A DNA stretch of 3,631 bases. Origin: a virus (lineage: Duplodnaviria > Heunggongvirae > Uroviricota > Caudoviricetes). Shown here piece after piece: positions 1,566 through 3,631 of the stretch; the stretch's first letter is position 1; every line of letters begins with the position of its first letter. The stretch lies in the IMG/VR virus record IMGVR_UViG_2737471848_000031; one strand, given 5' to 3'. The translations under genes and the position numbers were made by a program. The notes below the pieces were generated by a model, which saw only the letters and a program-made list of their open reading frames with translations, was not told the origin of the DNA and did no database searches.

Positions 1566-2879
1566 ATGGATAAAGTCAAATATCCAACAGGCGTCGAAAA
1601 CCACGGCGGCACATTACGCATCTGGTTTAATTTTAAAGGTAAACGTGTCAGGGAAAATCTTGGTGTCCCTGACACTGCCAAGAACAGGAAGATCGCCGGG
1701 GAACTGCGGACATCAGTATGTTTTGCCATCCGCACAGGAAGCTTTGATTATGCTGCACAGTTCCCTGACTCCCCCAACCTTCAGGCTTTTGGGGTAAGTA
1801 AAAAAGAAATTACGGTGAAGAAACTTGAAGAAAAGTGGCTGGATCTGAAACGAATGGAAATCTCTGCAAATGCATTCAATCGCTATGAATCCGTTGCAAG
1901 AACGATGGTTCCGAAAATTGGAGGCAGTAGACTGGTGTCATCGGTAACCAAAGAGGAATTGCTGTATATCAGGAAAGATTTGCTGACCGGGTATCAGAAT
2001 TCAACGAAAAACAAAGCAGCAGCAAAAGGACGGAGCGTCGTTACTGTAAATTATTACATGACGACAATCGCTGGAATGTTTCAGTTTGCTGCAGATCACG
2101 GTTACTTAGAAGCAAATCCCTTCCAGGGAATTAAGCCTCTTAAAAGAGCCAGGGCAGAGCCAGATCCGCTAACTCGTGACGAATTTATTCGCCTGATAGA
2201 TGCTTGCCGACATCAGCAGACGAAAAACCTGTGGTCATTGGCTGTGTACACAGGAATGCGTCACGGTGAACTGGTCTCCCTGGCCTGGGAAGATATCGAT
2301 CTGAAGGCAGGAACAATTACCATCAGGCGCAATTATACGAAACTTGGTGAGTTCACTCTACCGAAAACTGAAGCAAGCACAAACAGGGTTGTGCACCTTA
2401 TCCAGCCCGCTATCAGTGTCCTGAAAAATCAGGCTGAAATGACAAGACTGGGTAAGCAGTACAACATCAAGGTGCAACTACGTGAATATGGACGTTCAGT
2501 GAACCATGAATGTACTTTCGTGTTTAACCCTCAAGTGGTTAGAAAAAGCGAACAGGTAGGTTTTGTCTACAAAGTCGATTCTGTAGGTGACTCATGGGAA
2601 ACAGCCATTAAGCGTGCAGGGATCAGGCATCGAAAGGCATACCAGTCACGACACACTTATGCGTGCTGGTCATTATCTGCCGGAGCAAACCCAAGCTTCA
2701 TTGCCAGCCAGATGGGCCATGCAAGTGCCCAGATGGTATTCAATGTATACGGAGCATGGATGACTGACAGCAATGCAGAACAGATCGCAATGCTGAATCA
2801 GAAGCTGACAGATTATGTCCCAATGATGCCCCATAGTCACCAAAGTGACACCAGAGGCTTATTAAAATCAGTAAGTTAA
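1566..2879 (+). CDS. int: Phage tyrosine integrase (site-specific recombinase), 437 aa
   Basis: GGAGG at 1556-1560 lies 5 nt before the ATG. The N-terminus looks like an arm-type DNA-binding domain (TLRIWFNFKGKRVRENLG). Catalytic signatures are readable in frame: box I Arg codon at 2259-2261 (TGMRHGEL), box II R-H at 2649-2654 (SRHTY), conserved His at 2718-2720 (MGHAS), and catalytic Tyr at 2748-2750 (NVYGAW), with spacing like lambda Int. Confidence 0.95.
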   Translation: MDKVKYPTGVENHGGTLRIWFNFKGKRVRENLGVPDTAKNRKIAGELRTSVCFAIRTGSFDYAAQFPDSPNLQAFGVSKKEITVKKLEEKWLDLKRMEISANAFNRYESVARTMVPKIGGSRLVSSVTKEELLYIRKDLLTGYQNSTKNKAAAKGRSVVTVNYYMTTIAGMFQFAADHGYLEANPFQGIKPLKRARAEPDPLTRDEFIRLIDACRHQQTKNLWSLAVYTGMRHGELVSLAWEDIDLKAGTITIRRNYTKLGEFTLPKTEASTNRVVHLIQPAISVLKNQAEMTRLGKQYNIKVQLREYGRSVNHECTFVFNPQVVRKSEQVGFVYKVDSVGDSWETAIKRAGIRHRKAYQSRHTYACWSLSAGANPSFIASQMGHASAQMVFNVYGAWMTDSNAEQIAMLNQKLTDYVPMMPHSHQSDTRGLLKSVS

Positions 2880-2905
2880 TCCTTAATACCCGTCATGTTA
2901 ACTGC
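2880..2905. other. Approximate prophage/host attachment junction (attL or attR core region)
   Basis: This is the interval between the integrase stop (2877-2879) and the first clearly host-like yecE codons. The exact core cannot be defined without the other prophage end or an empty-site allele. Confidence 0.45.
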
Positions 2906-3631
2906 GTGGAGGGCAACACCACGCTTTACGCCCTGCCGAAACCCGAGGTTGTCCTGCGCTGGCGTGAGCAGACCACAGATGACTTCCGCTTCTGTTTTAA
3001 GTTTCCGGCGACCATTTCGCATCAGGCAGCATTACGGCATTGCGATGATTTAGTGACTGAATTTTTGACCCGCATGTCACCGTTGGCTCCGCGCATTGGG
3101 CAATACTGGCTGCAACTGCCTGCCACATTCGGCCCACGGGAGCTGCCTGCGCTTTGGCATTTTCTCGATTCTCTTCCTGGCGAATTTAATTATGGCGTGG
3201 AAGTCCGCCATCCACAGTTTTTCGCCAAAGGAGAAGAGGAACAAACGCTTAATCGCGGTTTACATCAGCGCGGCGTTAATCGGGTGATTTTAGACAGCCG
3301 CCCGGTTCATGCAGCACGTCCACACAGTGAAGCTATTCGCGACGCTCAACGAAAAAAACCTAAAGTTCCGGTACATGCTGTACTGACGGCGACAAATCCG
3401 CTGATCCGTTTTATCGGTAGTGATGATATGACGCAAAACCGGGAATTATTTCAGGTCTGGTTACAAAAATTAGCGCAGTGGCATCAGACCACTACGCCTT
3501 ATCTTTTTTTACATACGCCAGACATTGCCCAGGCACCGGAACTGGTACATACCCTGTGGGAAGACTTACGTAAAACGCTTCCAGAGATCGGAGCAGTTCC
3601 GGCTATTCCACAGCAATCTTCTCTTTTCTGA
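2906..3631 (+). CDS. yecE: DUF72 family protein YecE, apparently 5'-truncated by prophage integration (241 aa from GTG 2906; stop at 3629-3631)
   Basis: The translated sequence matches the DUF72 pattern from the conserved N-x-T-[FL]-Y-x-L-P motif onward (VEGNTTLYALPKPEVV...FRFCFKFPATISH). The family's usual N-terminal block of about 30 residues is absent. Upstream in frame there is only phage-derived sequence back to a TAG at 2834-2836, with no ATG. Confidence 0.85.
   Translation: MEGNTTLYALPKPEVVLRWREQTTDDFRFCFKFPATISHQAALRHCDDLVTEFLTRMSPLAPRIGQYWLQLPATFGPRELPALWHFLDSLPGEFNYGVEVRHPQFFAKGEEEQTLNRGLHQRGVNRVILDSRPVHAARPHSEAIRDAQRKKPKVPVHAVLTATNPLIRFIGSDDMTQNRELFQVWLQKLAQWHQTTTPYLFLHTPDIAQAPELVHTLWEDLRKTLPEIGAVPAIPQQSSLF

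Follow-up and report, generated by a model that had tools for sequence, protein, structure and literature searches.

The 3,631-nucleotide viral record IMGVR_UViG_2737471848_000031 (referred to here, at its full length, as the window) ends in DNA of the Escherichia coli gene yecE, next to a phage integrase gene. Positions 2898 to 2908 (TTAACTGCGTG) are, with high confidence, the core of the integrase-proximal junction (attL, following the convention used for phage phiP27) of a lambdoid prophage integrated into an attachment site, attB, inside yecE. As a prophage attL junction it is already known and frequent, an ordinary feature and not a novel one.

The 11-bp att core, which forms the crossover region, divides phage sequence on the left from host sequence on the right. 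It starts 18 nt past the stop codon of the integrase gene (int; TAA at 2877 to 2879) and is identical to the attL and attR features annotated in the record of the Shiga toxin 2e (Stx2e) phage phiP27. In the unoccupied chromosome of E. coli K-12 MG1655, the same 11 bp occur as a single copy within codons 29 to 32 of yecE (positions 1513 to 1523 of the retrieved K-12 segment), a gene of 272 codons that overlaps yecD by ATGA. The host part of the window (2880 to 3631) is 99.5 to 100% identical to yecE in all 5,426 complete E. coli genomes, with alignments that begin at 2898, or at 2886 where a few additional bases match. Identity to unoccupied yecE runs from 2898, and the sequence is exclusively host from 2909. 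Because divergence is abrupt on both flanks of the core, strand exchange can be placed within the 11 bp. An earlier note, made from the letters of the window alone, had proposed that a prophage was inserted within the yecE coding sequence, with the integrase stop at 2877 to 2879 and YecE beginning about 27 bp beyond it. The core, attB, and both junctions agree with that insertion; the integrase open reading frame (ORF) spans 1566 to 2879, and host reading begins at about 2900 to 2909, roughly 20 to 30 nt past the stop. The alignment to an unoccupied yecE that the note recommended, done here with K-12, puts the breakpoint at the core, and its statement that yecE is a documented phage integration locus is borne out by the literature (PMC8065619, PMC8112680, PMC8705337, PMC9751135).

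The note also anticipated a second copy of the core at the distal end of the prophage, and a direct repeat of this kind, lying next to the displaced host flank, was found in two relatives: strain G1/2 and phiP27, for which both attL and attR are annotated. The integrase-side junction of G1/2 is identical to window positions 2801 to 2960 (160 bp). Direct core repeats are located in that genome at 2155824 and 2211768, 55,944 bp apart; yecD and the first 32 yecE codons lie before the second, and phage DNA (...TATGCCCGTCACTTTAACTGCGTGATACGGGATTTTT...) comes after it. The yecD-side fragment of yecE in G1/2 is annotated by the Prokaryotic Genome Annotation Pipeline (PGAP) as a C-terminally incomplete pseudogene. 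With G1/2 and K-12 together, the set of attB, attL, attR, and deduced attP could be completed.

The occupancy of this site was also surveyed across the complete E. coli genomes. A 301-bp probe centered on attB was uninterrupted in 4,903 of the 5,426, and in the remaining ~523 the match breaks at the first base of the core. The exact junction of the window was fully present in 326 genomes (~6%; 160-bp probe, window positions 2818 to 2977), and a further 100 complete genomes carry, at the same core, a junction of the type made by phages with the integrase IntR. As the junction is exact in 326 complete genomes and coincides with the curated att feature of phiP27, it is beyond chance. We assign practically no probability to the idea that there is no integration junction here and that an integrase has come to lie beside a short yecE allele through a native variant arrangement or an assembly chimera. 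The only point in its favor is that RefSeq annotates the short DUF72 coding sequence (CDS) as an ordinary protein, whereas the junction recurs in the 326 independently assembled genomes and in at least six NCBI assemblies, the att feature is curated in phiP27, and the unoccupied site has been seen as well as both occupied junctions with their duplicated core. The genome-wide breaks at the core, together with attB, both junctions, and these recurrences, refute it.

Around the core lies an extended, imperfect att homology at 2890 to 2910. It is the counterpart of the 21-bp att of IntR-type yecE phages (CCGTCACATTAACTGCGTGGA) and reads CCGTCATGTTAACTGCGTGGA in the window; its limits are based on the repeat_region annotated in LC567835, on the 21-bp att of PMC8112680, and on an alignment of attB, both junctions, and the deduced attP. 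The left phage arm at 2886 to 2897 (ATACCCGTCATG) matches K-12 yecE (ATGCCCGCCACT) at 8 of 12 bases, rising to 9 of 12 for the G1/2 allele, and it keeps R27-H28-x-N30-C31 in frame. In IntR phages, the match to yecE in the phage arm is longer than that of the window. We read the arm as extended att homology combined with a putative core-type Int-binding site. An inverted repeat, CCCGT...ACGGG, one half of which covers this arm, was spotted by eye and is symmetric about the core in the deduced attP; it may represent a pair of core-type Int-binding sites. The arm was also considered as a device that restores the gene, and this was rejected: the resemblance covers only about four codons, and no start codon or Shine-Dalgarno (SD) sequence is conserved across the three lineages compared (window, phiP27, and IntR).

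The attP sequence was deduced by joining window positions 2868 to 2908 to the distal arm of G1/2 (8069 to 8040 of the retrieved segment, minus strand). In this form, a hairpin (CCCGUCAUGU...ACGGG) spans the core and is followed by AUUUUUAAAAAU, just downstream of int, and integration divides the hairpin. The hairpin and U-run together have a predicted energy of -12.3 kcal/mol, which is not significant against shuffled sequences (z = -1.45); the arrangement is reminiscent of sib/tI retroregulation in lambda. A variant core, TTAACTGTGTG (C to T), is seen at the integrase end of the PhiR49_2 record from ECOR13 (PV340570.1, positions 1 to 70), which suggests that a core substitution is tolerated, or has built up, in at least one lysogen.

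We next consider what integration leaves of yecE. The 5'-truncated gene (2900 to 3631, plus strand) retains codons 30 to 272 and its stop codon, TGA at 3629 to 3631. By protein alignment, native codons 1 to 28 are absent and F29 reads V; the nucleotide sequence is 99.5 to 100% identical to yecE of K-12 and other strains. Pfam DUF72 still matches the remnant (158 bits, E = 4.2e-46), compared with 171 bits for K-12 YecE.

The yecE frame occupies positions equal to 2 modulo 3. The earlier note had this frame running back through the integrase 3' end to a TAG at 2834 to 2836, with no ATG and a single GTG at 2846 to 2848. The TAG is indeed in frame, but it is followed by TCA CCA AAG TGA, so that 2846 to 2848 is itself a stop codon and the frame is open back only to 2849, not 2837, giving 17 codons before N30. 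The GTG that the note placed there is at 2845 to 2847, off by one and out of frame. An in-frame GTG that it overlooked, at 2906 to 2908, lies in the att core and is used in the ORF list as the start of a 241-amino-acid (aa) ORF; it shows no SD/anti-SD pairing (+1.2 kcal/mol). That the junction stretch holds no ATG was correct, as there is no in-frame ATG before 3074. The phage-derived codons fused in frame to the remnant (2849 to 2897, plus strand; HQRLIKISKLILNTRHV) follow the in-frame TGA and overlap the 3' end of int. The other starts of genetic code table 11 in this open stretch are ATT 2861, ATC 2867, and ATC 2879. Upstream of the first two, GAGG at 2854 to 2857 pairs at -5.8 kcal/mol, which is at the 10th percentile of all window positions and similar to the real starts there. 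No canonical start with SD pairing was found for the remnant, nor do the three lineages share a conserved start or SD sequence: the window has GAGG where phiP27 has GAGA, and the IntR sequence is unrelated.

In 23 orthologues sampled from other enterobacterial genera, all of 271 to 273 aa and all starting MIYIGLPQWSH, the N-terminal 31 residues are near-invariant, in particular M1, G5-L6-P7-Q8-W9, H11-P12-K13-W14, R16-L17-G18, I19, L22-E23, and Y25-A26-R27-H28-F29. None of these orthologues has an N terminus that matches the phage-derived codons; such a match is what the earlier note had named as its refutation. In an AlphaFold model of full-length YecE (mean predicted local distance difference test [pLDDT] score, 82.3; predicted template modeling [pTM] score, 0.82), eight strands alternate with helices; residues 3 to 7 form strand beta1, and residues 12 to 16 and 22 to 28 form the first helices (alpha1, 12 to 28). 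Among solved structures, the closest are 1ztv, 1vpy, and 1vpq, crystal structures of DUF72 TIM barrels that align from residue 1. Lacking residues 1 to 28, the remnant does not encode a complete (beta/alpha)8 barrel with the conserved N-terminal beta1-alpha1 (MIYIGLPQWSHPKW...).

Because beta1-alpha1, the ATG, and translational coupling to yecD are lost, and only ATT/ATC or an SD-less GTG is gained, yecE is most likely inactivated while the prophage is resident. The earlier note had left yecE as either inactivated or expressed as a chimera, and these results narrow that choice toward inactivation. Alternatively, the phage could supply a replacement 5' end, in which the in-frame phage codons, with R-H-x-N-C kept, together with GAGG and ATT/ATC overlapping the int stop, would give int-coupled synthesis of a functional, N-terminally swapped YecE. 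The host gene would then be spared, as with phages that bring a substitute gene end. We consider this very unlikely. In its favor, the frame stays open over 17 codons in both the window and phiP27 and over 30 in the IntR class, yet chance alone would give an open run of 17 codons in about 44% of cases ((61/64)^17). All three lineages keep R27-H28-x-N30-C31, although the att homology that Int requires at the nucleotide level explains this. The GAGG pairing is comparable to that of real starts in the window, and PGAP calls a 256-aa CDS that is not a pseudogene; against this, GAGG is GAGA in phiP27 and the IntR upstream sequence is unrelated, so that no start or SD is conserved, and the available starts are noncanonical ATT and ATC only. 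Such codons initiate at ~1% of the level of ATG or less. Finally, 13 phage residues cannot substitute for beta1 and alpha1, which comprise 28 near-invariant residues.

It is also important to point out how the remnant has been annotated. In PGAP/RefSeq it appears as a 256-aa "DUF72 domain-containing protein" with its start at ATT 2861 and a 19-nt overlap with int, and it carries no pseudogene flag. The same annotation is found in strains EC2 and G1/2 and in at least six other assemblies (proteins WP_044713004.1 and WP_052119704.1); in the retrieved segments, the CDS lies at 2861 to 3631 in the window, 5982 to 6752 in EC2, 602 to 1372 in G1/2, and 11296 to 12066 in the other assemblies. Its length equals 13 phage and 243 yecE codons, in agreement with the chimera. 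This intact-protein annotation is probably a systematic artifact in several hundred genomes, and a pseudogene call fits the truncated yecE better. A related pattern is seen in Logan-derived gene calls (P0001, P0002, P0004, P0005, and P0007) of 420 to 421 aa, which place the DUF72 (YecE) and MAPEG (YecN) domains in one product; these look like a gene caller reading through the yecE TGA, not real fusions. One Logan cluster of 550 members, with 89% coverage of YecE, corresponds to the prophage-truncated form.

In this explanation, the tyrosine integrase carried out site-specific recombination between attP and attB sharing the core, and the resulting order is yecD, yecE codons 1 to 32, phage ... 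xis, int, core, yecE codons 30 to 272, yecN, cmoA, cmoB. While the prophage is resident, the yecE remnant would be nonfunctional, having lost its native promoter-proximal context, the ATGA coupling, the ATG, and beta1/alpha1. Precise excision by Int and the excisionase Xis would restore an intact yecE, since the core is undamaged and the other junction still holds the 5' fragment.

The orientation of int raises a further possibility. No terminator-like site is predicted between the int stop and 3387, and a promoter and terminator scan of 2400 to 3631 returned nothing above shuffled expectation. As int and yecE are co-oriented with no predicted terminator between them, it is plausible that int transcripts read through into the yecE remnant, yecN, and cmoAB. 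A more elaborate version would make the junction a regulatory graft: int transcription would drive the remnant and yecN-cmoA-cmoB, GAGG with ATT/ATC would yield an int-coupled truncated DUF72 protein with altered activity, and the attP hairpin and U-run would terminate or destabilize int mRNA in the free phage in a sib-like manner and be split on integration. We see only a slim chance that this is so. If it were true, the cmo5U34 modification of tRNA would depend in part on the state of the prophage.

It is possible, though on balance doubtful, that the junction is real but belongs to a decayed, fixed prophage remnant that is unable to excise, in which case the disruption of yecE would be permanent in the lineage. 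Many structural genes of the G1/2 prophage are annotated as frameshifted, although these frameshifts could be errors of long-read assembly. The original ends of the EC2 yecE prophage are no longer adjacent, as it has been rearranged with an ompW prophage, and many such E. coli prophages are reported to be defective (PMC8112680). In the window, on the other hand, int is intact (437 aa, equal in length to its counterparts in phiP27 and PhiR49_2 and 99.8% identical to the latter), xis is intact, and the core is unmutated; the remainder of this prophage extends beyond the 3.6-kb window and so is outside the evidence.

The preferred explanation, a prophage that inactivates yecE while resident and can leave it intact on excision, has several points to be set against it. 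The repeated core is seen only in close relatives, the window itself covering 3.6 kb at the integrase-side end of its prophage. Inactivation of yecE is inferred, and the N-terminal part of the structure model has moderate confidence only (pLDDT 63 to 69 for residues 1 to 40). In addition, GAGG (-5.8 kcal/mol) stands 3 nt upstream of ATT 2861 and 9 nt upstream of ATC 2867, which leaves room for low-level translation of the chimera.

Strain EC2, which matches the host part at 100%, was tried as a source of the distal end and proved uninformative owing to its rearrangement. In EC2 (NZ_CP058571.1, 2188500 to 2254400), the prophage that starts at the yecE integrase-side junction ends beside an ompW that lacks its N terminus, and yciE-yciF-yciG and the trp operon come next, which points to a large chromosomal rearrangement between the yecE prophage and an ompW prophage. 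Prophages at ompW are reported to carry a yecE-derived secondary attB (PMC8112680). Toward the yecD-side end, cargo is present in the yecE prophages of both G1/2 and EC2 (1127 to 7191 and 923 to 4930 of the retrieved segments, respectively): genes for a YadA-like adhesin and for an S6-family autotransporter protease (SPATE), the latter broken into three CDSs in G1/2. None of the closest complete relatives examined (the G1/2 prophage, the EC2 prophage, and PhiR49_2) has an annotated stx gene; the late region, where an Stx-converting phage has stxA/stxB downstream of the Q antiterminator gene, lies outside the window.

Every gene in the window is on the plus strand, and the DUF72 (YecE) frame extends to the final base. 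The early-left region consists of a 63-aa ORF (1 to 192), a DUF551 gene (195 to 785), a DUF4222 gene (873 to 1115), and a 48-aa ORF (1119 to 1265). These are followed by the excisionase gene (1274 to 1510; 78 aa), which matches the Pfam putative excisionase family DUF1233 (E = 7.9e-33) and whose counterparts in phiP27, PhiR49_2, EC2, and G1/2 are annotated as excisionase, and by the tyrosine integrase gene (1566 to 2879), the product of which matches Arm-DNA-bind_2 (E = 9.7e-24) and Phage_integrase (E = 3.1e-18). The window is a mosaic. Positions 1 to 1249 are 99.6% identical to the Stx1 phage BP-4795, and the nearest relatives of the xis-int module are Escherichia phage PhiR49_2 (97% at the nucleotide level and 99.8% for the integrase protein) and phiP27 (94.5% at the nucleotide level). 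As the best relatives differ between 1 to 1249 and 784 to 2900, a recombination joint lies in the overlap, at ~784 to 1249. The whole window is exact in none of the complete E. coli genomes, the best match being 96.4% identical over 91% of its length. The window's own genome is represented by a contig of GCA_037957325.1 (JARWBV010000003.1), which matches the window with a single mismatch at 3247 and is alike in carrying yecN-cmoA-cmoB downstream.

Taken together, these results place the window at a textbook locus, as yecE has been a recognized site for Stx and other lambdoid phages since phiP27 (2002) and the core was already annotated in GenBank. The exact breakpoint and core are now fixed for use in occupancy PCR or in silico typing (probe 2818 to 2977), a recurrent annotation artifact is flagged, and two diverged integrase lineages are seen to use one core.

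The junction can be compared with several known systems. Phage 21 and e14, at icd, are examples of phages that insert within a gene and bring a replacement for one of its ends. As in the window, the phage arm next to their core is similar to the host sequence that was displaced and preserves the frame. However, those elements swap a 3' end for a near-synonymous copy, which yields a full-length protein, whereas here the 5' end is displaced, the resemblance extends over only about four codons, and nothing replaces the 28 conserved codons, the start codon, or the upstream coupling. With lambda the window shares a tyrosine integrase that has an N-terminal arm-binding domain, an upstream excisionase gene, a short identical core between imperfect inverted repeats, and an int gene transcribed toward att, so that prophage int transcripts enter host DNA. 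Lambda differs in having a 15-bp core and in inserting between gal and bio without disrupting a gene.

Among phages of yecE itself, which is listed as a standard Stx-phage site in reviews and genomic surveys (PMC8065619, PMC8705337), many independent occupancies have been reported (PMC8112680), and an Stx2d phage has been transduced experimentally into the yecE of recipient strains (PMC9751135). The IntR type, with its 21-bp att, is found in Stx1a, Stx2a, Stx2d, and non-Stx prophages of O145:H28 and other serotypes (PMC8112680). Such prophages (PPyecE of Stx-producing E. coli [STEC] O145:H28 and others, with Stx1a/Stx2a; Nakamura et al. 2021, PMC8112680) use the same position in yecE and the same 11-bp core, within the 21-bp att, and their integrase gene is likewise co-oriented and reads into the yecE remnant. 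They differ from the window in an integrase of ~76% protein and ~79% nucleotide identity, a perfect att of 21 bp, an int-to-core spacer of 47 nt instead of 18 nt, and an unrelated in-frame leader.

For phiP27 (AJ298298/NC_003356), the attL in yecE is credited to Recktenwald and Schmidt (2002) where that work is cited in PMC9751135. The window differs from this Stx2e phage in showing no evidence of stx, in its early-left genes (1 to 1249), which are 99.6% identical to BP-4795, and in the GAGG before ATT 2861, which is GAGA in phiP27. The two have the same core, the same phage arm (...AATACCCGTCATG), and the same xis-int-att order, with an integrase gene of 1,314 nt in both and 94.5% nucleotide identity over window positions 1019 to 2900; no base differs between them in the core or in the 16 nt of phage arm next to it (TTAATACCCGTCATG...).

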